Shown one piece after another: positions 4,875-64,000 of a DNA stretch of 64,000 nt (positions are counted from its first letter, which is position 1; the number at the start of each line of letters is the position of its first letter). A model generated the notes under the pieces. The model made no database searches. It was not told the origin of the DNA and was given only the letters and a program-made list of their open reading frames with translations. Where the stretch lies: assembly GCA_036229005.1 (NCBI GenBank), contig JAZAMN010000071.1, forward strand, positions 1 through 64,000, in the 5' to 3' direction. The stretch is from Myxococcota bacterium (GTDB taxonomy: Bacteria > Myxococcota_A > UBA796 > CAJQPC01). The position numbers and the translations under genes are program-made.

Positions 4875-5471
4875 ATGCGCTCCTTTGCCAAGGCCCTGAT
4901 CGCCACCACCCCCCTGCTGCTCGTCTCCGGCGCCGCCTTCGCGGCCGGCGGCATGAACGAGTGCGCGAACGGACTGGACGCCACCTGTGGCAAGGCCATC
5001 GGAATCCACTTCGTCAACTTCGTGATCCTCTTCGGCGGCCTCTTCCTGGTCGCCCGCAAGCCCGTCGGTGAGCTGCTCAAGCAGCGCCAGGCGGAGATCA
5101 AGAAGGAGATCACCGACGCTCAGGAGGCCCGGAACGTGGCCCAGGAGCGCTTCGACGAGCTGGAGGCGCGCCTGGCCCGCTTCGAGCAGCAGGTCGAGCA
5201 GATGAAGACGGACGCCAAGGCCGCCGCTGACCGCGACGCCGCACTGCACCACGAGCGCACGATGAAGGACATCGAGCTCATCAAGGAGCAGACCACCCGC
5301 GCCATCCGCGAGGAGAGCACCAAGGCCCACCGCCGTCTGCGCGAGCAGGCCGTGGACCTGGCCCTCGAAGTCGCCACCGAGCGCCTCAAGGGGCAGCTCA
5401 CCACCGACGACCACAAGCGCCTGAACCAGGAGTTCCTGCTGGCCGTCAACCCCGGAGCCGCCGATGCCTGA
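4875..5471 (+). CDS. atpF: ATP synthase F0 subunit b
   Basis: HFVNFVILFGGLFLVARKP followed by a coiled coil; precedes delta. Confidence 0.88.
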   Translation: MRSFAKALIATTPLLLVSGAAFAAGGMNECANGLDATCGKAIGIHFVNFVILFGGLFLVARKPVGELLKQRQAEIKKEITDAQEARNVAQERFDELEARLARFEQQVEQMKTDAKAAADRDAALHHERTMKDIELIKEQTTRAIREESTKAHRRLREQAVDLALEVATERLKGQLTTDDHKRLNQEFLLAVNPGAADA

Positions 5472-6027
5472 TATCGCCGTCGCGGAGCGCTACGCCCGCG
5501 CCCTGATCGAGATCGGTCAAGACGAGAACAAGGTCGACGCCTACGCTGCCGACCTGTCCCGCTTCAACGAGGTGCTCACCGGCACCGAGCTGCTCTCCGC
5601 CCTGGCCCACCCCGGCTTCTCGAACGACGAGCGCCGCAGCGTGCTGGACACCGTGCTCGGGCAGCTCAAGGTCGACCCCATGGTCGGCAACTTCCTGCGC
5701 ATCGTGCTGGAGAAGGGCCGCGTCGGCGCCCTGCCCGGCATCGTGGACCGCTACCGCCTGCTCGCAGACCGGCTCGCTGGCCGCGTCCGCGCCGTCGTCA
5801 CCACCGCTGTGCCCCTGGATGACGCCATGACCGCCGAGGTCAAGGCCGCCCTCGAGGCCAGCACCGGCAAGACCATCCTGATCGACCCCAAGGTCGACCC
5901 CGAGATCCTCGGGGGGCTGGTCGCCCACGTCGAAGGCCGCGTCTACGACGCCAGCCTCCGCACCCGTCTCCTCAACCTTCGTCAGACCCTTCTCGCTACG
6001 ACCCCGGACCAGGCTGCAGAAGCCTGA
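5464..6027 (+). CDS. atpH: ATP synthase F1 subunit delta
   Basis: [10 protein letters not shown]-terminus and VDPEILGG...YDAS. Confidence 0.95.
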
Positions 6028-19801: not shown

Positions 19802-19949
19802 GGGAGGCTCCGGATCGGGGTTCGACACCCTGGAGCGGAAGACCCGCGGAGCCCAGACATAGGGAAGCCCCCGTAGTGGGGGCTGTGGTGGGCCGGGCGT
19901 GGGGCTGCGCTGGAGCCGAGGGCGCGCTGCCCCCGACTCCTGGGCGCTC

Positions 19950-20315
19950 TCAGTCGCGATCGTCGCCGGGCTCGCCGGTGTCCACGTAGCGGTCGTCGTC
20001 GTCGTCCCCGTCACGGTCGTCGTCGTCGCGGTCGTCGTCCTCGCGGTCGTCGCGGTCGTCGTCCTCGCGATCACCATCGTCGTCGTCATCGTCGTCGCAG
20101 TCGTCGCGATCGTCGTCGTAGCCCAGAGAGGAGTCGGTGACCTCGCCGTCTTCCCGATCCTCCGTGCAGTCGTCGTCACCATCCGCTTCGGCGGTGTCCC
20201 CACCCACCTCGGTGGCCGAGCGGCCGCCCAGCAGATCCCGGGCCCCGCTCGCGTCGCAGGCGGAGAGGCCGATCAGGGCCGCGAGGCCCAAGGTGGTCAT
20301 GGTCAGGGTGCGCAT
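19950..20315 (-). CDS. Small Asp/Arg-rich lipoprotein, paralogue of the neighbouring gene
   Basis: MRTLTMTTLGLAALIGLSAC lipobox; DDDRDD repeats; AAGGAG RBS upstream. Confidence 0.75.
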   Translation of the reverse strand: MRTLTMTTLGLAALIGLSACDASGARDLLGGRSATEVGGDTAEADGDDDCTEDREDGEVTDSSLGYDDDRDDCDDDDDDDGDREDDDRDDREDDDRDDDDRDGDDDDDRYVDTGEPGDDRD

Positions 20316-20526
20316 TTCGTTCTCCTTGGATGCTGCCCCCGGGGAGCCGAGGTGCTGCTCCAACATGGCCCGGCAGCGTACACATCGGAAGCGACCGCAG
20401 CCCGATTCCGTATCGAACCGGTGTACACCTCGATCAGCATTCTTAAGCCCAATTCATCGCTATTCGCGCGATTCCCGTTGACACCCCCAAGGTGTACACT
20501 GGACACTGCTGTGTACAGCGAATCCC

Positions 20527-21366
20527 ATGAACGTCCCCGACCTCTACAGCACCTTGGACTACCGCGCGTGGCTGCGCGCGTGGTTCGACGCCAAGAAGCA
20601 GGAGAATCCGCGCTTCTCGCACCGGATGTTCGTGCGCATGGCCAAGATGCGCTCCCCCAGCTCCATCCTGCAGATCATGGACGGCAAGCGGAACCTGAGC
20701 CCCCAGAGCTGCCGCCAGCTCTGCGACGCCATGAAGCTCTCGGCCGAAGACGCCCGCACCTTCGCCCTGCTGGTGGACTTCGATCAGGCCGACACCCCCG
20801 AGGCCCGGGACGCCGCCTACCAACGGCTCTCCGCCACCCAGCGCTTCAAGCAGGCCCACCGCATCGAGGGCGAGTCCTACCGCTGCCTGTCCCGCTGGTA
20901 CTACCCGGCCATCCACGAGCTGGCCCAGCGCCCCGACTGGCGCGCGGAGCCCGCCTGGATCGCCGAGCAGCTCCGACCGCCCATCGCCCCCCAGCAGGCC
21001 GAAGAGGCGCTGCGCGAGCTCCAGACCCTGGGGATGCTCCAGCCCGACGAGCAGGGCACCCTGCGGCCCCAGGACGGGAGCCTGACCACCCAGCAGCAGG
21101 TGACTGGCCTTGCGGTGCACAACTACCACCGGGGCATGAGCGCGCGGGCGCAGGACGCCGTGCGGGACTTTCCCAGCGACCAGCGGCACATGCTCGGCCT
21201 GACGGTGTCGATCCCCGCCGCCCTGGTGCCCCAGCTCAAGGCCGAGCTCAACGCCTTCCAGGCCCGGCTGCTGGACCTCTGCGATGGCGCCGAGGACCAC
21301 CCCGAGCAGGTCTACCAGCTCAACCTGCAGCTCTTCCCCCTCTCCAAGCGCTCGGAGCTTGAGTGA
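20527..21366 (+). CDS. TIGR02147 / DUF4423 family HTH protein
   Basis: DYRAWL..KKQENPRFSHR..GKRNLS, SRWYYPAIHEL, NYHRGM and VYQLNLQLFPLS. Confidence 0.88.
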   Translation: MNVPDLYSTLDYRAWLRAWFDAKKQENPRFSHRMFVRMAKMRSPSSILQIMDGKRNLSPQSCRQLCDAMKLSAEDARTFALLVDFDQADTPEARDAAYQRLSATQRFKQAHRIEGESYRCLSRWYYPAIHELAQRPDWRAEPAWIAEQLRPPIAPQQAEEALRELQTLGMLQPDEQGTLRPQDGSLTTQQQVTGLAVHNYHRGMSARAQDAVRDFPSDQRHMLGLTVSIPAALVPQLKAELNAFQARLLDLCDGAEDHPEQVYQLNLQLFPLSKRSELE

Positions 21367-46676: not shown

Positions 46677-49600
46677 TCAGCGCCGGCGGCGCACCACCAG
46701 ACCGAGCATGGCGAGCAGACCGAACACCAGGCCGCTGGGGGCCGCGGGGCTGGAGCTGCAGCCGAAGCCGCCGCCGCCCAGGTAGGTGCCCACATCGTCG
46801 GCGGGGTCCAGGGGATCCAGGCCGCGGGCGACCTCCTCGCCGTCGTCGATGCCGCCGCCGTCGGAGTCGGCCTTGATCGGCGAGGTGCCCAGCTCGACCT
46901 CGAAGCCATCGTCCAGACCGTCGCGGTCGGAGTCCATCACCATCGGATCGCTGCCGATCTCGTAGGCCTCGTCGCGGTCGCTCAGGCCGTCGCCGTCGCT
47001 GTCCTCGACCATGCCGCTGGTGCCCAGCTCGGCCTCGTAGCCGTCGTCCAGGCCGTCGCCGTCGGAGTCGGGGTCGATCGGCGAGGTGCCAGATTCGACC
47101 TCCTCGCCGTCGCTCAGGCCATCGCCGTCGCTGTCCACCGCCAGGGGATCACTGCCCAGCTCCTTCTCCTGCCCATCGTCCACGCCGTCGTCGTCACTGT
47201 CGGCGTCCAGGGGGTCGGTCTCGTCAACGTAGACCTCCTCGCCGTCGTCCACGCCGTCGCCGTCGCTGTCCGCGCTCAGGGGATCGGTGCCAAAGCTGTT
47301 CTCCTCCTCCCAGTCGGTGATCCCGTCGTCGTCCGTGTCGGCCAGGTCGTCGGAGACATCGAAGGGGTCGGTGCCGTCGACCAGCACCTCTTCGCCATCG
47401 CTGCGGCCGCCGCCGTCGCTGTCGGGGTTCCAGGGATCGGTCCCCCAGTCCACCCACTCGTCGTAGTCGTCCAGCCAGTCACCGTCGCTGTCCGCCGACA
47501 GGGGGTCGGTCTCGGACTCGTAGAGCTCCGCCCAGTCCCCCAGGCCGTCGTCGTCGGTGTCGGGCTCGTTGGGATCCGTGCCCAGCTCATAGGCCTCCTC
47601 GTAGTCGTCCAGGCCGTCCTCGTCGGTGTCCTGCGCGGTGGGGTCGGTGCCCAGCTCGTGGATCTCCGCGTAGTCGCCCACGCCGTCGTCATCGCTGTCC
47701 GGCTCGGTGGGGTCCGTGCCCCACTCGTTGACCTCGACGCCGTCGGAGATGCCGTCCTCGTCGCTGTCCTCGACCAGCGGGTCGGAGCCGTGGATCAGGA
47801 CCTCGTCCGCGTCGGAGACGCCGTCACCGTCGCTGTCGCCAGAGGCGTCGCTGGGATCGGTGCCGGCGCTGTCCTCCCAGTCATCGCTCAGGCCGTCGCC
47901 GTCGCTGTCGCTGCTGGTCGGGCTGGTCCCGATTCCGGCCTCGTAGCCGTCGGCCAGGCCATCGCCGTCGCTGTCCGTGCTGGCGGGATCGCTCTCCCAG
48001 ACGCTGACCTCATCGCCGTCGTCCAGGCCGTCCCCGTCGGTGTCGGGGTCGTAGGGGTCCGCGCCGTAGCTGGCCTCGCTGGCGTCGGAGAGGCCGTCGT
48101 CGTCGGAGTCCTCGTCCAGATAGTTGGCCGCGCCGTCGGCGTCCGCGTCGTCGTTGGTGGGGTCGCCGTCGCCGTCGACGTCCTCGTCGGCGGTGCTCAG
48201 GCCGTCGCCGTCGTCGTCGCTGTCCAGGTAGTCGGCGATGCCGTCACCGTCGGTGTCCTCGCCGGTGGGCGCGGAGGCGGTGTAGACCTCGCTGGCGGTG
48301 GGCACGCCGTCGCCGTCGTCATCGCTGTCCAGGTAGTCGGCGGTGCCGTCCCCGTCGCTGTCTTCCCCGGTGGGGCCGCTGGCGGTGTAGACCTCGTCCG
48401 CGGTGGCCACGCCGTCGCCGTCGTCGTCGGTGTCCAGGTAGTCGGCCCAGCCGTCCCCGTCGCTGTCCTGGGCGGTGGGATCGCTGGCGCCGTAGACCTC
48501 GTCGACCGTGGCCACGCCGTCGCCGTCGTCGTCGCTGTCCAGGTAGTCCGCCACACCATCCGCGTCGGAGTCCTGGTCGGCGGGCTTGGCGGCCGCCAGG
48601 CGCTCGTCCCAGGTGCTCACGCCGTCGCCGTCGTCGTCGCTGTCCAGGTAGTCCGGGGTGCCGTCCCCGTCGGAGTCCTGGTCCACGATGGCGCTGCCCG
48701 CGTAGGCCTCGCTGGCGGTGGGCACCCCGTCGCCGTCGTCGTCGTCGTCCAGGTAGTCCTCGAAGCCGTCCGCGTCGCTGTCCAGGCTGGCGATGGGGTC
48801 GAACTCAAAGGAGGTGAGCAGCCCGTCGCCGTCGTCGTCGTCGTCCAGGAAGTCCGGGGTCAGGTCGCCGTCCGAGTCGTCGGAGCCGGGGTCGCCGTCG
48901 CCATCCAGGTCCTCGTCGACCGTCTGAATCCCATCGCCGTCGTCGTCGGAGTCGGCGTAGTTGGGCACGCCGTCGCCGTCGGTGTCGTCGTTGGTGGGGT
49001 CACCGTCAAAGTCGAGGTCTTCGTCGGCCGTCTCGATGCCATCGCCGTCGTCGTCGGTGTCCAAGTGGTCGACCACGCCGTCGCCGTCGGTGTCGATGGA
49101 GCTGCCGCCGGAGACCTCGGCCGAGGTGGGCACGCCGTCGTCGTCGTCGTCGGTGTCCAGGTAGTCCGGGGTGCCGTCGCCGTCGGAGTCGTCGTTGCTG
49201 GGGTCGCCGTCGCCGTCGATGTCCTCGTCGTCGTTGGAGACCCCGTCCTTGTCGTTGTCCGTGGGTGCGTCGAGGTAGTCCGGGATGCCGTCACCATCCT
49301 CGTCCCCCGTCGTCCCCTCATCGATCGTCAGGGTGCCGTCGCCGTCGTCGTCGTCGTCCAGGAAGTTCGGGATCCCGTCGCCGTCGGTGTCGTCGTTGGT
49401 GGGATCGCCGTCGCCGTCCACGTCCTCGTCGGCGGAGGGGATGCCGTCGCCGTCATCGTCGTCGTCCTGGTAGTTCGGGGTGCCGTCGCCGTCGGTGTCG
49501 TCGTTGGTGTAGTCGCCGTCGCCGTCCGCGTCCTCGTAGGCGTCGATGACCAGGTCACCGTCCTCGTCCTCCGCCACGTCGGGGAAGCCGTCGCCGTCGG

Positions 49601-50522
49601 TGTCGTTGCAGAAGGCGGTGTACTCGGCCTCGTAGTTGGCCACCGCCTCGGACTGGCTGGTGCCGTAGACCACCAGCAGGCCAAAGCTCACCGAGTCGCC
49701 CGCCGCGATGGTGGCCTCGGTGTGCCGCCAGTGCATCGTGTCGTCCGCGCTGGCGCTGTTGGGGTCGCTCAGGGTCGCGTCTGCGTCCTGGTTCCAACCG
49801 GTGATGCCGAACTCATCCTTGTCCGGCTCGCAGGAGCCAAAGGCCCAGGTGTACCCGCTGGAGGAGCCCACGGCCTCGACGTAGTCGTCGGTCCCGTCGG
49901 AGTCCAGGTCGCGCACGTCGTTGTAGGTCGCGGTGACGCCAAAGGTCTCGGAGTCCACGTCCGGGTCCACGCCGAAGTTGATCCGGAAGTTCGTGGCGTC
50001 CGCCGTGCCGTTGTTCTCGACCAGAAAGCGCACGGACATCAGGATGCCGTCGACCGCCCACACCTCGGTCTTGGTGACGCTCAGGTCGCCGTAGTCCATC
50101 CCGTACTTCACGACCTTGTAGTCGCTGGTGGACTCGTCGGCCTCATAGGTGACCGTGTAGTTGTAGGTCCCCGCCGAGCTGTTGCCCGCGGCCGTGTACG
50201 CAGTGCCGCCCTGGTCCCACTCCCAGGTCAGGTTGTGCCAGGGGGAGCCCGCGCGGACCCAGTCGGTCCAGAGCCCATCGCCGTCCAGGTCCGTCTGGAT
50301 CCCGTTGTGGCTGGTGCTGTCGTACCAGAGCCCCGCGTCGTTGGTGTAGAGCTGGACGTAGGTGCCCGTGGTCTGCAGCGCGGCCTGCGCGGACGGCGAG
50401 AAGCCCAGGGTCAGGGAGAGGAGCGAGGCACCCAGGCCCACTCCAGCGGCGCGCCCACCGACCAGCTTGAGGGTGCGGGAGGCAGGCTTGGGCTTGCGGG
50501 CCGAGCGAGGAAAACGTTGCAT
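46677..50522 (-). CDS. Large surface protein with many TSP3-like acidic repeats and MYXO-CTERM-like tail
   Basis: Signal peptide ending AQA, an N-terminal domain of about 250 aa, DxDGDGxPxYLDxDDDGDG and GTDPxxxDSDxDG repeats, and tail YLGGGGFGCSS..TM..RRRR. Confidence 0.88.
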   Translation of the reverse strand: MQRFPRSARKPKPASRTLKLVGGRAAGVGLGASLLSLTLGFSPSAQAALQTTGTYVQLYTNDAGLWYDSTSHNGIQTDLDGDGLWTDWVRAGSPWHNLTWEWDQGGTAYTAAGNSSAGTYNYTVTYEADESTSDYKVVKYGMDYGDLSVTKTEVWAVDGILMSVRFLVENNGTADATNFRINFGVDPDVDSETFGVTATYNDVRDLDSDGTDDYVEAVGSSSGYTWAFGSCEPDKDEFGITGWNQDADATLSDPNSASADDTMHWRHTEATIAAGDSVSFGLLVVYGTSQSEAVANYEAEYTAFCNDTDGDGFPDVAEDEDGDLVIDAYEDADGDGDYTNDDTDGDGTPNYQDDDDDGDGIPSADEDVDGDGDPTNDDTDGDGIPNFLDDDDDGDGTLTIDEGTTGDEDGDGIPDYLDAPTDNDKDGVSNDDEDIDGDGDPSNDDSDGDGTPDYLDTDDDDDGVPTSAEVSGGSSIDTDGDGVVDHLDTDDDGDGIETADEDLDFDGDPTNDDTDGDGVPNYADSDDDGDGIQTVDEDLDGDGDPGSDDSDGDLTPDFLDDDDDGDGLLTSFEFDPIASLDSDADGFEDYLDDDDDGDGVPTASEAYAGSAIVDQDSDGDGTPDYLDSDDDGDGVSTWDERLAAAKPADQDSDADGVADYLDSDDDGDGVATVDEVYGASDPTAQDSDGDGWADYLDTDDDGDGVATADEVYTASGPTGEDSDGDGTADYLDSDDDGDGVPTASEVYTASAPTGEDTDGDGIADYLDSDDDGDGLSTADEDVDGDGDPTNDDADADGAANYLDEDSDDDGLSDASEASYGADPYDPDTDGDGLDDGDEVSVWESDPASTDSDGDGLADGYEAGIGTSPTSSDSDGDGLSDDWEDSAGTDPSDASGDSDGDGVSDADEVLIHGSDPLVEDSDEDGISDGVEVNEWGTDPTEPDSDDDGVGDYAEIHELGTDPTAQDTDEDGLDDYEEAYELGTDPNEPDTDDDGLGDWAELYESETDPLSADSDGDWLDDYDEWVDWGTDPWNPDSDGGGRSDGEEVLVDGTDPFDVSDDLADTDDDGITDWEEENSFGTDPLSADSDGDGVDDGEEVYVDETDPLDADSDDDGVDDGQEKELGSDPLAVDSDGDGLSDGEEVESGTSPIDPDSDGDGLDDGYEAELGTSGMVEDSDGDGLSDRDEAYEIGSDPMVMDSDRDGLDDGFEVELGTSPIKADSDGGGIDDGEEVARGLDPLDPADDVGTYLGGGGFGCSSSPAAPSGLVFGLLAMLGLVVRRRR

Positions 50523-59830: not shown

Positions 59831-61300
59831 ATGGCCCAGCAGTACCGTCAGACCCAGACCCCCGCCGCGGCCCCCGAGGCGGCGCACGCCGGTCACGACC
59901 ACGGCCACGACCACGGCCACACCCACGGGAACGCGGCGGCGCAGGAAGACCTCCTGGGCGGCGCCCGCAGCAACGCCCCGGCCAGCCGGGAGGCCGCTCT
60001 TCGGCGTCACGCTGACAACCGCGCGCGCATGAACAGCGTGCTGGGCCGAATGCTCGCGCGGAACCCCGGCTCGGACGATCATGACGAGCTGATGGAGCGC
60101 AACAGCGCGGAGTGGATCAACAACGGCGAGGCCCGGGCCGTCGTCCTCACCCCCATCCACGACGCCCACGAGCGCCCCGGGGTCCCCGCCGGCAAGGACG
60201 CCTTCTTCGATGGGCGCAAGGCCTTCCACGAAGACGGCGCCACCTACTCGACCAACGTCAACGACATGAGCGGCATCGAGCTCAAGAACCCGGGGGCGGG
60301 CGGCACCATGTCCAACGACGGGCGCACCCTGACCGTCATCGACCCCGAGCAGTGGAACAGCGACACCACCCTGATCGACGTGATCGTCCACGAGGTCCAG
60401 CACGACGCCGACCAGCACGGCCAGGGTCAGGTCTGGGAGTTCGACCGCCCCGCTGCCGTGGCCGGGCAGGCCGACCGAGCCCCGGACTGGTGCTACAACA
60501 GCTACGCCTCCGAGTTCCGCGCCTACTGGACCATGAACGAGGAGGGCTCTCGCGGGGACGCCTTCGCCCGCTCCAGCAACACGCGGGTCTCCAACTTCAA
60601 CGTGACCGCGGTCCATGGCGGCCAGAGCCACACCGTGCAGACGAACTTCTCCAACAAGCGCCAGCAGGAGATCTTCGAGCACATGTACAAGGAGATCGTC
60701 GGCCACCAGTACAAGGTCAACGGCCAGTGGGTCGCGGTCAACTACGCCTACCTGCCGCACTACTACGCCACCGATCCCGCCTTCAAGGCCTTCATCGACG
60801 GCCTCACCCAGCCCACCGGCGGCAACCTCATCAACTCGGTGCGCATCCAGAACCTCTCCGAGCGCATCCAGCGCGGCAGCCTGGAGCCCGAGCTCTCCCA
60901 GCTCGACGCCCACGACCGCCGCTTCTTGGCCGACCAGACCGCCTCCGCCGAGTTCTGGTCCCACGCCAGTGGGCGCCTGAGCCGCTCTGAGCAGGCCACC
61001 CTCCAGGCCGCCGTGTTCGGCACCGCGACCCCCGCCGCCGCCACCAGCACCGCAGCCGCCGCGCCGCAGATGAGCACCGCCGAGCTCGAGGCCGCCACCC
61101 GCGCCTCCGCCGGTGGTGGCGCCACCCCCCAGCAGAGCGGCGTACAGATCAGCGTCGGCGCCGGAGACACCCTGGGCAGCCTCGCCGCGCGCCACCTGGG
61201 CAGCAGCAGCCGCTGGCAGGAGCTCTACGCCGCGAACACCGACATCATCGGCAGCGACCCCAACCGCCTCCAGGTGGGCATGCGCCTGCGCCTGCCGTGA
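59831..61300 (+). CDS. HEXXH metallopeptidase-like protein with C-terminal LysM domain
   Basis: IVHEVQH..SEFRAY; LysM VGAGDTLGSLAARHLG..WQELYAAN..DPNRLQVGMRLRLP; His-rich N-terminus. Confidence 0.8.
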   Translation: MAQQYRQTQTPAAAPEAAHAGHDHGHDHGHTHGNAAAQEDLLGGARSNAPASREAALRRHADNRARMNSVLGRMLARNPGSDDHDELMERNSAEWINNGEARAVVLTPIHDAHERPGVPAGKDAFFDGRKAFHEDGATYSTNVNDMSGIELKNPGAGGTMSNDGRTLTVIDPEQWNSDTTLIDVIVHEVQHDADQHGQGQVWEFDRPAAVAGQADRAPDWCYNSYASEFRAYWTMNEEGSRGDAFARSSNTRVSNFNVTAVHGGQSHTVQTNFSNKRQQEIFEHMYKEIVGHQYKVNGQWVAVNYAYLPHYYATDPAFKAFIDGLTQPTGGNLINSVRIQNLSERIQRGSLEPELSQLDAHDRRFLADQTASAEFWSHASGRLSRSEQATLQAAVFGTATPAAATSTAAAAPQMSTAELEAATRASAGGGATPQQSGVQISVGAGDTLGSLAARHLGSSSRWQELYAANTDIIGSDPNRLQVGMRLRLP

Positions 61301-61650
61301 GCTGGCTGCTGCTGCTGGCCTGCCACCGCCAGGACCCGCCCATGATGCAGCCCAAGCCCCTGGACCCCGCCCCGGTGACCTCGCCGGCGGAGCAGAGCCT
61401 CACGCTCGTGCGCGGGGAGCCCCAGGCCCTGCTCGGTGGGCAAGTGATCCTGGAGCAGGCCACAGCCTCCTCCACCTTCGTCCACGACTGGGAGGAGGTC
61501 ACCACCCCCGCCTTCGGCACTCTGCGCTTTGAGCGCGACGGAAAGGTCGAAACCGTCGACTTCGAGCAGGACGCCACCCTCCACGTCTGGGGACGACAGA
61601 TGGTGGTGCGGGGACCCCAGGGCGATCAGCTCGTCGTGCTGAGCGACTGA
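61297..61650 (+). CDS. Small lipoprotein coupled to the LysM gene
   Basis: MSWLLLLAC; GTGA overlap with the upstream stop. Confidence 0.6.
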   Translation: MSWLLLLACHRQDPPMMQPKPLDPAPVTSPAEQSLTLVRGEPQALLGGQVILEQATASSTFVHDWEEVTTPAFGTLRFERDGKVETVDFEQDATLHVWGRQMVVRGPQGDQLVVLSD

Positions 61651-62819
61651 GCCCGCCAGGCCCGCCACAGCGCGGCCTCATCCCAGGGCGTGCTCGCCGT
61701 CATCGGGACCTCCCGGTGGTAGCGGGCCATCTCCACTGCGAAGCCCGCGTCGTCCCGCTCGAACCACTGGGCCGCCTGAACGTCTCCGTGGATCAGGCGC
61801 TCGAAGCGGAGGCGGAGGACCAGGCGACATGCGATCCCAAACCCCTGGGGATCCAGGCCCGCCGGGACCTCTCTGCACCTGTAGGCCCGCGCGAGGTGCG
61901 GCTCGGTCAGCCCGACCTCGTTCTCGTCCAGGAGTTCAAGTGCGGCGTTCAAGCTGCCTTGTTGTGGCTGCCCCAGGGGCAGCCCATGGTGGACCGAGAG
62001 CTCCCGGGCGCGCTGCAGCTCCTCCCTCAAGCGGGGGATCTCGGGGGCGCCGAAGCTGCCCTCCACGCGCTCCAAGGTGACGCCGCGCAGGCCAGGACAG
62101 CGGGGCAGGACCTGCTCCAGCAGCGCCCAGACGGGCTCGGGGATGGCGTCGTCGTGGGAGTCCAGGCGGCGGCGGCGGTCGGGGCTCCAGGCGGGGGGCG
62201 CGTCCTTGCCGCCGGAGATGTGGATCTCGATCACGCGGTCCAGGGGGGCGGCGTCGAGCCAGGCCTGGGGGGACTCGCCGGCGTTGATGGCGCCGGTCCA
62301 GAGGTTGTGGACGTCCAGCAGCAGGTGGTGCTCCTGGCCCAGGGACTCGCCCAGAGCGCGGGCCTCGTCGGCCATGGGGCCGGGCCAGGCGTAGACGGCG
62401 GAGTTCTCCACGGCGGCGGTCCCGACCAGGGCCCGCAGGTAGCCCAGGCGGCGGCGGAGTCGGGCGGGGGGTGCGTCGATGGGGACGGGCAGGCCCACGT
62501 GCTCGCTGCCCAGCTTGACGGCGCCCAGGTGGTCGGAGGCCCACAGGAAGCGGAAGATGGCGTGGTCGCGGGCCAGGGCGCGCAGGTGTTCGGGCCAGTG
62601 GCCGCCCTCGGCCCCGCAGAGGTTGGCGGCGACCCCGTGGGCCACGAAGGGCAGCGCCCCGGCGAGCTGCGCCAGGATGCCGTGGAAGGCGTTGGGCGCC
62701 CGGCCCGGCCCCCACAGGGTCTCCGGGGTCACCCCGCCGTAGTCGATGTCGTCCAGCAGGGGCTCCAGCAGGGCCAGGGCCTGCCGGTCCGGGGGGAACA
62801 TCAGGCCGACGGCGGCCAC
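61626..62819 (-). CDS. DUF692 / multinuclear non-heme iron oxidative enzyme (MNIO) with C-terminal extension
   Basis: HGV, WASDHL, VEN, LLDVHNL, EIHISGG, LDSHD and TLER in the DUF692 order. Confidence 0.88.
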   Translation of the reverse strand: MAAVGLMFPPDRQALALLEPLLDDIDYGGVTPETLWGPGRAPNAFHGILAQLAGALPFVAHGVAANLCGAEGGHWPEHLRALARDHAIFRFLWASDHLGAVKLGSEHVGLPVPIDAPPARLRRRLGYLRALVGTAAVENSAVYAWPGPMADEARALGESLGQEHHLLLDVHNLWTGAINAGESPQAWLDAAPLDRVIEIHISGGKDAPPAWSPDRRRRLDSHDDAIPEPVWALLEQVLPRCPGLRGVTLERVEGSFGAPEIPRLREELQRARELSVHHGLPLGQPQQGSLNAALELLDENEVGLTEPHLARAYRCREVPAGLDPQGFGIACRLVLRLRFERLIHGDVQAAQWFERDDAGFAVEMARYHREVPMTASTPWDEAALWRAWRAQSLSTTS

Positions 62820-63572
62820 TCAGATGCCCTGGAAGTCGGCGACGTCGTGCAGGTAGAGGAAGCGGCGGCTGCCCTCGGGCACGTGGCCCATGCCGCAGTC
62901 GATCGCGTATTGGCTCTCCACGCCCTCGATGTCGGTGCCGCAGCCCCAGGAGCTGGCCCAGTGCGCGCCCGCGGGGGCCTTGGTGACCAGCGCGGCGCGG
63001 ACCTTGGCGCCGTCTCCGGTGGGCGCGGGGCCCAGGCGCTGGAGCACCGGGTAGAGCGCGCCCTGGATGGCCTGGCCCTCGGCGGCGATGCGGGCCTTGT
63101 TCCAGGCCTCGTGCTTGGGCGTGCCGTAGTCCGGGTCGCCAAAGTTGGGATCCTGGTCGGGGTCGACCTTGGGGAGGGTGACGGCCACGCCCTCGGCGGT
63201 CAGCGGGTCCAGGCGAACGACCACGAACCAGTCGTCCTCGCTGACCTGCAGGTCGGGCACCAGCTTGCGCACATCGGAGGCCAGGGCGAACACCACCTCG
63301 GCCGCGCTCAGGGGCGCCAGATCCGCGTCGCTGGCGTTGTTGAGCCACTGCCCGAGCTGGTTGCCGCGGGTCCACTTTGCGCCGTCGTCGGCGGGGATGA
63401 GCATGACGAGCACCGCCTTCTTGGCGCGGGCGGCGCTCTGCCAGGCCTTGGAGAGGGCGGCGCGCTGCTCGGCGGGCGAGCCGCTGGCCAGGGCCACGCC
63501 GGACCAGATCGGCGCGGACAGGGCGCCGGCGGACAGGCCCAAGGCGGCGCGGAGGAGCATGCGGCGGTTCAT
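62820..63572 (-). CDS. Tat-signal protein with C-terminal C-x14-CGMGH motif (putative MNIO substrate)
   Basis: MNRRMLL...ALA signal; its only two Cys are in WASSWGCGTDIEG...CGMGHVP; stop abuts the MNIO start. Confidence 0.75.
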   Translation of the reverse strand: MNRRMLLRAALGLSAGALSAPIWSGVALASGSPAEQRAALSKAWQSAARAKKAVLVMLIPADDGAKWTRGNQLGQWLNNASDADLAPLSAAEVVFALASDVRKLVPDLQVSEDDWFVVVRLDPLTAEGVAVTLPKVDPDQDPNFGDPDYGTPKHEAWNKARIAAEGQAIQGALYPVLQRLGPAPTGDGAKVRAALVTKAPAGAHWASSWGCGTDIEGVESQYAIDCGMGHVPEGSRRFLYLHDVADFQGI

Positions 63573-63633
63573 GGAGTCTCCAGCTTGGATCGCGCTGTGG
63601 AATCAACGCGGGGATCGACACGGTACACCGGCG

Positions 63634-64000
63634 TCATCCGGTGAACTCCGAGACGTCGTGCAGGAAGAGGAAGCGCTGGCTCGCGGCGGGCACGTGGCCC
63701 ATGCCGCACTTGACCCGGTACTGCGGCTCCACGCCCTCGATGTCGGTGCCACAGCCGGAAGACCGGGCCCAGTGTGCGCCCGCGGGGGCCTGCTCGACGA
63801 CCTGGGCGCGCACCTGGGGACCGCAGCCGGCGGGGGCGGGCGCCAAGCGCTGGAGCACCGGGGACAGGGCCCCCTGGATGGCCGCGTTGTTGGCCTGGAT
63901 GCGCTCCAGCAGCACCGCCTCCTCCACCGCGTCGAAGGCCCGGAACTGGGCGCGCTCGGCGTGGGGCAGGCTGGGCCGCAGCAGCTCACCGCGGGCCCGG
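63634..64000 (-). CDS. Paralogue of the preceding protein, N-terminus outside the window
   Basis: Frame is open to the window edge; C-terminus APAGAHWARSSGCGTDIEGVEPQYRVKCGMGHVPAASQRFLFLHDV. Confidence 0.8.
   Translation of the reverse strand, partial: RARGELLRPSLPHAERAQFRAFDAVEEAVLLERIQANNAAIQGALSPVLQRLAPAPAGCGPQVRAQVVEQAPAGAHWARSSGCGTDIEGVEPQYRVKCGMGHVPAASQRFLFLHDVSEFTG

Follow-up and report, generated by a model that had tools for sequence, protein, structure and literature searches.

What does an oxidative enzyme that depends on multinuclear non-haem iron (MNIO, DUF692) act upon when the gene directly in front of it encodes a protein of 250 residues with a predicted twin-arginine signal? 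This question is raised by the minus strand at the end of the stretch of DNA analysed here (the window, 64,000 nucleotides), i.e. bases 1-64000 of contig C71 from the 6.4-Mb genome of a Myxococcota bacterium; the contig numbering is continued below past 64000. An earlier inspection of this DNA (the original prediction) had noticed a twin-arginine protein with two cysteines only and an MNIO gene following it without a gap. Both observations were recovered: the open reading frame (ORF) of the protein contains no cysteines besides C211 and C226, both in a C-terminal tail, and the GTG start of the MNIO gene, which is backed by a homologue beginning MAGVGLMLPP, abuts the stop codon. Protein and enzyme form a real, tightly conserved system that is apparently undescribed, in which the twin-arginine protein is, as judged from sequence, probably the substrate of the MNIO.

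Linkage of the twin-arginine proteins and the MNIO

A profile of the protein family matched 13 of 401 genomes of the phylum; one weak hit (E 7e-4) was dropped as spurious, and in all 11 genomes that remain besides that of the window the MNIO is the next gene. In the reverse direction, an MNIO profile (built partly from the same genes, with four candidates scored per genome) reached at least 380 bits in 11 of the same 12 genomes and met a contig-truncated copy in the twelfth, and no other of the 401 genomes had such a match. Similarly, scanning of species genomes for the tail pattern gave at least 136 stretches, 80 with full flanks and 56 with short flanks. Among the full-flank stretches listed, 31 are chance matches, none with an MNIO beside it (0/31), and the other 49 lie on 40 contigs (three of which also belong to the 12-genome set), where an MNIO follows next on 36, does not follow on 3, and the contig edge intervenes on 1. 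Each of these four exceptional genomes holds an MNIO of the same clade elsewhere (397-474 bits, and 407-474 bits for the three that lack an MNIO next to the gene), which in two of them adjoins other copies of the family. The 56 short-flank stretches listed comprise 22 that do not belong to the family, 18 with an MNIO start, 14 with two family frames (mostly the next paralogue) and 2 with neither. Finally, two homologues of one genus that lack the tail cysteines have no MNIO within 6 kb. The check proposed for the tail family, namely whether its members have DUF692 neighbours, thus came out in its favour almost without exception, with the proviso that the counts overstate the number of events because related genomes are not independent.

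A family of candidate substrates with a conserved cysteine tail

A word-based search returned 48 homologues, all hypothetical, the named ones from Sorangium and Sandaracinaceae, and a profile of 44 homologues led to 920 clusters at 50% identity; the family occurs mostly in Myxococcota and Planctomycetota. Beyond weak Tat-signal hits (see below) none of the 44 members matches a Pfam or NCBIfam family. In 188 proteins of the family, W205, C211, C226, G227 and R237 are invariant, followed by M228 (187/188), G229 (184/188) and H230 (157/188, or 84%), the last giving way to Tyr, Phe, Ser or Arg in the remaining 31. The spacing of the two tail cysteines is 14 residues in 104 proteins and 13-22 in most others, rarely up to about 37, and CGMG is followed by 15-39 further residues.

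The operon at the window edge contains three such paralogues of 246, 243 and 250 residues, 49-55% identical across their whole length, all of which keep the C-x14-C spacing that had been reported for two of them. The tail motif as originally given had the right residues, with two spacings off by one; it reads W-x4-GCG and GCGTDIEG-x8-CGMGH. The claim that the upstream paralogue diverges outside the tail did not hold: over 251 aligned residues the two proteins share 50% identity, and what the window had shown was the most variable part of this paralogue, which carries four cysteines. A loose six-frame scan of the genome (CG-x8-22-CGM[GA]) returned the three operon tails and one match spanning a stop codon, so that the operon tails are not due to chance.

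Export by way of twin-arginine translocation (Tat) is predicted with high confidence. Inspection and conservation point to an RR motif, a hydrophobic stretch and an AxA site, RR lies within the first 25 residues in 177 of 183 relatives with a literal CGMG, and a TatC gene is present in the window's genome. The N-terminus of the family profile matches the signal peptide of CueO weakly (E 0.044), and the TAT_signal profile gives a weak match in 10 of the 44 members.

In a survey of 325 distinct family ends, 302 carry CGxG, the other 23 being cut fragments, off-frame pieces and tail-less copies. The distal cysteine is present in 296 of these 302 tails, and none of the 296 carries CxxC. Three of the six tails without it (from three genomes) carry CPxCG[M/L]G (CPACGLG or CPPCGMG) at the same position, which suggests that both positions of the first cysteine do the same job. 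The motif CPxCGxG is thus found in 3 of 302 tails and is absent from the three proteins of the operon. A domain-only search, made as a check for selection bias in the tail, gave 17 hits, all with a CGMG tail, five of them known before and all close relatives.

The family also shows natural variation. Arrays reach nine copies, 27-60% identical to each other: in L108 (768-8828, minus strand; Planctomycetota) nine tandem paralogues, two with degenerate tails, stand before one MNIO. The variants with the CPxCG motif in place of the distal cysteine occur in L076/L078 (L078:5430-6392, minus strand), L059/L060 (L060:2184-2891, minus strand) and at the 5' end of L425. The domain is kept and the CGMG tail lost at L038:5846-6685, L039:6204-7079, L075:2064-2816 and the 5' end of L424; at least three of these copies keep the Tat signal, those of L038 and L039 lie away from any MNIO, and those of L075 and L424 lie within operons.

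The enzyme and its relatives

The MNIO of the window matches PF05114 with 102 bits (cut-off 25) and stays below all NCBIfam equivalog cut-offs (BufB 76/310, HvfB 66/360, ChrH 61/600 and ApyH 41/400 bits). The metal-ligand motifs noted earlier are borne out, with nine ligands (H61, H97, E138, D169, N172, H200, D220, H222 and E250) that are invariant in 38/38 aligned relatives. In the AlphaFold2 (AF2) model, which has a pLDDT score (predicted local distance difference test) of 95.8, a TIM-barrel core of about residues 1-278 is followed by a fused, all-helical C-terminal domain, and the closest solved structures are MbnB, TglH and HS_1138 (Z 22-26). The helical domain has no Pfam match, and in 16 of 52 loci the MNIO is directly followed by a separate gene that encodes a homologue of this domain with 97-141 residues (none of six tested gave a Pfam match); on this evidence the fused domain likely serves as the partner of the MNIO.

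The kinship of the enzyme was studied with an unrooted tree of 56 hand-picked MNIO cores out of 182 and a further set (TglH, MbnB, ApyH and PbsC were not among them). ChrH-type enzymes were gathered via their motif and the ChrH model, and the reference rows pass the ChrH, BufB and HvfB cut-offs. The window clade is supported at 99/93, the ChrH-type enzymes at 100/99, and both together are separated from bufferin, HvfB and other types at 100/98; a quick tree of 125 MNIOs agreed. Similarly, the window clade ranks directly behind the ChrH-type matches in a search with the ChrH model, and the profile of the window clade scores 147-192 bits with ChrH-type enzymes, at most 145 with other genome hits, 93 with TglH and at most 27 with MbnB. 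Cross-scores between clade and ChrH-type profiles have medians of 160 and 159 bits, against 113 and 100 with other MNIOs. A search of 351 genomes with the ApyH model gave nothing above its cut-off, the matches being mostly bufferin types, and a search of plasmids yielded distant matches only. By these sequence comparisons the window enzymes are a clade of their own beside ChrH/DybH and outside the ChrH clade.

Two further MNIO genes lie in the same genome, one on C48 near 19897-20613, which belongs to a large bufferin-like group and has a 252-residue partner, and one on C7 near 5259-5714, of a long-branch type with a downstream gene of 276 residues. ChrH-type MNIOs of the phylum occur at L298, L300, L301 and L302, where a nearby reading frame ends in CTACGRG, CGPCGRG, CPPCGRG or CPACGRG. 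In these motifs Arg replaces Met, a variant that the available portions of PMC13056109 do not mention.

Predicted fold of the candidate substrate

The AF2 model of the 250-residue protein (pLDDT 87, predicted template modelling score 0.83) was compared with solved structures. For residues 29-183 the best match is 3fk8 (Z 6.5, root-mean-square deviation 3.1, 112 aligned residues; the tool's bar is 8), and the list is dominated by thioredoxin-fold chains. Atlas leads are also thioredoxin-like (TM 0.36-0.43 by query). Foldseek returned nothing at E up to 0.001 (E at least 0.4), and when PDB sequences were searched with the substrate profile, weak hits and matches to signal peptides were all that came up. 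There is no CxxC after the first core strand: positions 60-67 read P-x-D-D-x-x-K-W, and Cys is not among the commonest residues there in the 188 proteins. At the position that we take, from thioredoxin topology, to be cis-Pro-like, Pro is found in 157/188. The protein is thus predicted from its model to have a thioredoxin-like fold without CxxC.

The tail forms short strands in the model, and the part of the mature protein that is modelled with the lowest certainty contains CGMG (pLDDT 59). Covariation computed on 285 full-length members connects S235, P232 and G234 with Q75, G70, P60, N158 and K159, as well as G210 with M228, the coupled pairs including G210-M228, Q75-S235, P60-P232 and G70-P232. 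This suggests that the tail folds back over the helix after the vacated CxxC position, with C211 near CGMG.

Proposed chemistry and alternative explanations

The tail motif CGMG is the end of the motif CPACGMG on which ChrH/DybH-type enzymes act. As described in the available portions of PMC13056109, these enzymes turn CPACGMG into a hydantoin and a macrocycle, with a mass change of -4 Da, a free thiol and no UV band; they possess a C-terminal helical bundle, which may be a separate gene, and accept an internal motif (CPACGMMM). In DybH the second cysteine is oxidised first, and without the first cysteine glutathione traps the intermediate; APACGMG is turned into a hydantoin and an electrophile that is trapped by any thiol (PMC13733907, in the portions available). 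Ring closure would therefore be the last step and need just a nearby thiol.

By analogy, a cytoplasmic MNIO with its partner domain would oxidise C226 of CGMG in each neighbouring twin-arginine protein in the manner of DybH, a hydantoin would form with the Gly-Met after C226, and the thiol of C211, 15 residues upstream, would close a large ring of about 15 residues. The modified protein, with its predicted thioredoxin-like domain, would then leave through Tat. The product itself, a -4 Da hydantoin with a thioaminal cross-link and one free thiol, is about as likely as not, and we hold the sequence of steps as a whole to be the best explanation, at a level of confidence that is no more than middling. 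The original prediction, an MNIO acting on a folded exported protein, stands as far as the MNIO linkage, the conserved twin-arginine signal and the predicted folded domain are concerned, whereas its copper site is not supported (see below); it contained neither the connection between CGMG and CPACGMG nor the thioredoxin-like fold, and mentioned no partner domain and none of the lipoprotein described below.

Several observations weigh against this DybH-like scheme. The enzyme stands outside the ChrH clade and reaches 61 bits of the 600-bit ChrH cut-off (NF050165), and a position as 'sister' to ChrH is not proven by a tree that is unrooted and lacks the four types named above. MNIOs at such a distance are known to differ in their reaction, as do MbnB, TglH, ChrH and BufB. 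The best structural matches of the enzyme are TglH and MbnB, ChrH not being among the solved chains found, and its C-terminal domain resembles the ChrH bundle weakly (hhalign probability 1.9%, best hmmsearch E 0.001). With respect to the substrate, the thioredoxin match is below Z 8, the couplings are between near-invariant columns and may come from joint decay in degenerate paralogues, and the residues after CGMG seem to be packed against the domain, an arrangement that in the folded protein would impede entry to the active site. The three CPxCG paralogues are divergent array members found after the fact. Finally, in one genome enzyme and protein are encoded on separate contigs, and upstream of the MNIO there is no gene of the family.

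Among the alternatives, the one that fares best, an unlikely one in our view, is that the MNIO modifies C226 with another outcome, i.e. a formylglycine or thioaldehyde, a hydantoin that closes no ring, or a cut by which a short C-terminal piece is released, the domain being a carrier or scaffold and C211 having a redox or catalytic role of its own. The separate clade of the window enzymes and the variable cysteine spacing would fit this, as would a third cysteine in the domain that is 87% conserved, and in variants of DybH the reaction can end with the thioaldehyde or the aldehyde (PMC13733907, available portions). The replacement of the distal cysteine by CPxCG[M/L]G in three paralogues, however, suggests a common job for the two first-cysteine positions, and no protease recurs among the 52 neighbourhoods.

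We regard as distinctly improbable that both cysteines become copper-binding heterocycles (thiooxazole or oxazolone-thioamide) and form, with Met and His, a site for copper in the periplasm after the manner of bufferins and oxazolins. In favour of it, as far as the available portions of PMC12452194 go, Cys is the target in most MNIO products and copper is bound by the largest families; Met228 is almost invariant, and Atlas gives the C-terminal part of the lipoprotein weak leads to NlpE/lipocalin-like barrels (0.82 for NlpE, below the bar of the tool). This copper reading, which the original prediction had favoured, is nonetheless weak on several grounds: the enzyme groups with ChrH/DybH and is split from the BufB and HvfB types at 100/98, His230 is replaced in 31 of the 188 proteins, and neither a copper gene, a DoxX gene nor a DUF2063-RRE partner recurs in the 52 neighbourhoods. 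Moreover, Met can be swapped for Ile or Leu, as in the CPGCGLG of HymA (PMC13056109, available portions).

An equally poor prospect is that the twin-arginine protein is not a substrate at all, its cysteine pair being a disulfide or metal site and the protein a partner, receptor or binder for an MNIO product made from another peptide. A thioredoxin-like fold with a cysteine pair suggests redox use, extra copies of the family occur away from an MNIO, and the survey of the 52 neighbourhoods was systematic only for ORFs of 80 residues or more. Against this, no Cys-bearing gene besides the lipoprotein recurs in that survey, the protein stands directly upstream of the MNIO, where a precursor would be, CGMG, and sometimes the whole CPxCGMG, is also found in what the nearest characterised enzymes act on, copies that lose the cysteines can also lose the MNIO neighbour, and the protein is predicted to be exported, the enzyme being without a signal. 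A tail of the type-1-copper-like or Rieske-like kind was rejected, its His being variable.

If the DybH-like modification takes place, the modified tail could, tentatively, fold over the place that CxxC takes in thioredoxins and act in the cell envelope as a reactive or ligand-binding group derived from the protein itself; the paralogues might then be adapted to different targets, and the lipoprotein be a docking partner. A bolder and more doubtful version sees in the MNIOs a dedicated clade that makes a new cofactor out of protein, i.e. a long-range Cys-Cys thioaminal/hydantoin cross-link over a vacated thioredoxin-fold active site, in hundreds of Tat-exported enzymes or sensors that have expanded into arrays with as many as nine specificities in Myxococcota and Planctomycetota.

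The locus and its neighbourhood

Reading of the ORFs of C71 beyond the window edge, as had been advised earlier, brought to light a third paralogue and a lipoprotein gene. The operon runs on the minus strand in the order lipoprotein gene, three twin-arginine paralogues and MNIO (Table 1), and the lipoprotein gene and those of substrates 1 and 2 are joined through overlapping stop and start codons. No sigma-70-like site was found in a promoter scan of 3.7 kb around substrate 1.

Table 1. Features of the MNIO operon on contig C71
Feature	Position	Strand	Basis and remarks
MNIO (DUF692) gene, 397 aa, GTG start	61626..62819	-	PF05114 match, predicted structure; without signal peptide
All-helical C-terminal domain of the MNIO, ~120 aa, probable partner domain	61626..61990	-	Homologous separate genes and model
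Candidate substrate 3, 250 aa	62820..63572	-	Twin-arginine signal, predicted thioredoxin-like domain without CxxC (~29-183), Cys tail
Predicted Tat signal peptide MNRRMLL ... ALA, ~residues 1-29	63486..63572	-	RR conservation in relatives
Tail motif W205-x4-G-C211-G-x13-C226-G-M-G-H230	62883..62960	-	Conservation and codon positions
Candidate substrate 2, 243 aa, 3' part inside window	63634..64000	-	Start C71:64365
Candidate substrate 1, 246 aa	C71:65105-64365	-	Beyond window
Lipoprotein gene, 310 aa	C71:66034-65102	-	Beyond window

A homologue of the lipoprotein lies upstream of or within the array in 21 of the 52 loci. This conserved family (270-340 residues) has no Pfam match, and its only conserved cysteine is that of the lipobox. 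Besides the lipoprotein and the separate partner, no gene cluster recurs in more than 4 of the 52 loci.

On the other side of the MNIO, the plus strand encodes a protein of 489 residues that has an HExxH motif and, at its C-terminus, a LysM domain (59831-61300), then a small lipoprotein-like ORF (61297-61650); both converge on the MNIO and are not conserved beside other loci. Farther away, the minus strand (46677-50522) encodes an acidic protein of 1281 residues with dozens of DxDGDG repeats and, at its C-terminus, a cysteine, a hydrophobic stretch and an Arg-rich end, which resembles a myxobacterial surface-sorting signal.

Literature and significance

No published description of an MNIO with this twin-arginine family was found, and searches for CGMGH, or for MNIO together with twin-arginine, led to unrelated papers only; most subscription papers lie outside this scope, as do the supplements of PMC13056109 and the review PMC11806912, and either of the latter two could mention the clade. 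PMC12452194 predicts protein substrates for MNIOs, its selection being signal-bearing precursors of fewer than 200 residues; its main text has no match for Tat, thioredoxin, Myxococc or Planctomyc, and CGMGH does not occur in two of its supplement files, one of them partial. A term search of PMC12668002 gave no match. The original prediction had not recognised the class as a characterised one, which applies to this family and not to the principle: modification by an MNIO of a whole exported protein, the 34 kDa secreted MelA1, is already published (PMC13056109, available portions) and protein substrates have been predicted (PMC12452194), so that the novelty is one of variant, not of category.

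Few MNIO reactions are as odd as the ChrH/DybH rearrangement, and the physiological role of its product is called currently unknown in the portions of PMC13056109 that are available. The present family offers a neighbouring clade with a large, soluble and predicted well-folded candidate substrate, in which natural variants (distal cysteine, CPxC, or no cysteine) allow a test of whether protein folding, rather than the CPxC turn, sets the ring closure, and of what the product is for. If the proposed chemistry is true, a reaction known mainly from short peptides would reach a large family of proteins that are predicted to be folded, one would have an enzyme with which to place large rings, or a reactive handle, within folded proteins, and the use of Tat by an MNIO pathway would have a reason. 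On the cofactor reading, the ChrH/DybH product would acquire a structural context that makes its function open to testing.

Comparison with known systems

Comparisons with published systems in this section refer to the available portions of the papers cited. Bufferins (BufABC) and oxazolins (HvfABC) have in common with the window system the order of precursor, MNIO and partner, and exported Cys precursors that are sometimes in tandem (PMC12452194). The window system differs in its enzyme clade and in having no DUF2063-RRE partner (about 250 residues), no DoxX and no sign of a copper context; none of the 44 family members matches a Buf1, Buf2 or EGKCG precursor model of Pfam or NCBIfam. It is not a bufferin or oxazolin. 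The predicted TIGR04222 and 'adjamnio' substrates with PME-type 2 partners are likewise protein-sized and have a short helical partner without Pfam match, and no substrate family tabulated in the main text of PMC12452194 matches the window proteins in length, Cys count and signal. With SoxW/DsbH/AGR2-type thioredoxin-like domains (PF13899, PF13098) the proteins share the predicted fold of residues 29-183, whereas they have no CxxC and no sequence-level match, and possess the additional Cys tail.

ChrA/ChrH (chryseobasin) and DybA/DybH have the same CGMG context of the second cysteine (PMC13056109, PMC13733907). The iron ligands H65, H102, D179, H210, D228 and H230 of DybH (PMC13733907) correspond to H61, H97, D169, H200, D220 and H222 of the window MNIO, and HxSGG, LDLHN and CPxL are core residues common to ChrH/DybH and the window clade. 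By contrast, ChrA and DybA are short peptides with CPxCGxG and Sec or lipoprotein signals (PMC13056109, PMC13733907).

The nearest system is MelA1-MelH-MelHc of Candidatus Melainabacteria, in which MelH/MelHc modify MelA1 at CPACGMG (PMC13056109). It likewise combines an MNIO with a protein-sized secreted precursor, a CGMG-containing motif and a small helical partner, fused or separately encoded, and no characterised enzyme was found that is closer kin than its ChrH/DybH-subfamily MNIO. MelA-type proteins belong to the tetratricopeptide-repeat proteins, bear an SPI signal and have CPACGMG at the C-terminus (PMC13056109), whereas here a predicted thioredoxin-like domain is joined to a twin-arginine signal and an internal CGMG, and the first cysteine usually lies 14-23 residues upstream instead of 3. 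Tandem arrays of up to nine copies, the conserved lipoprotein and the separate enzyme clade are further differences. With its enzyme outside the ChrH clade and its proteins devoid of CPxCGxG, the window system does not belong to the ChrH subfamily, yet it would work like MelA1/MelH/MelHc.

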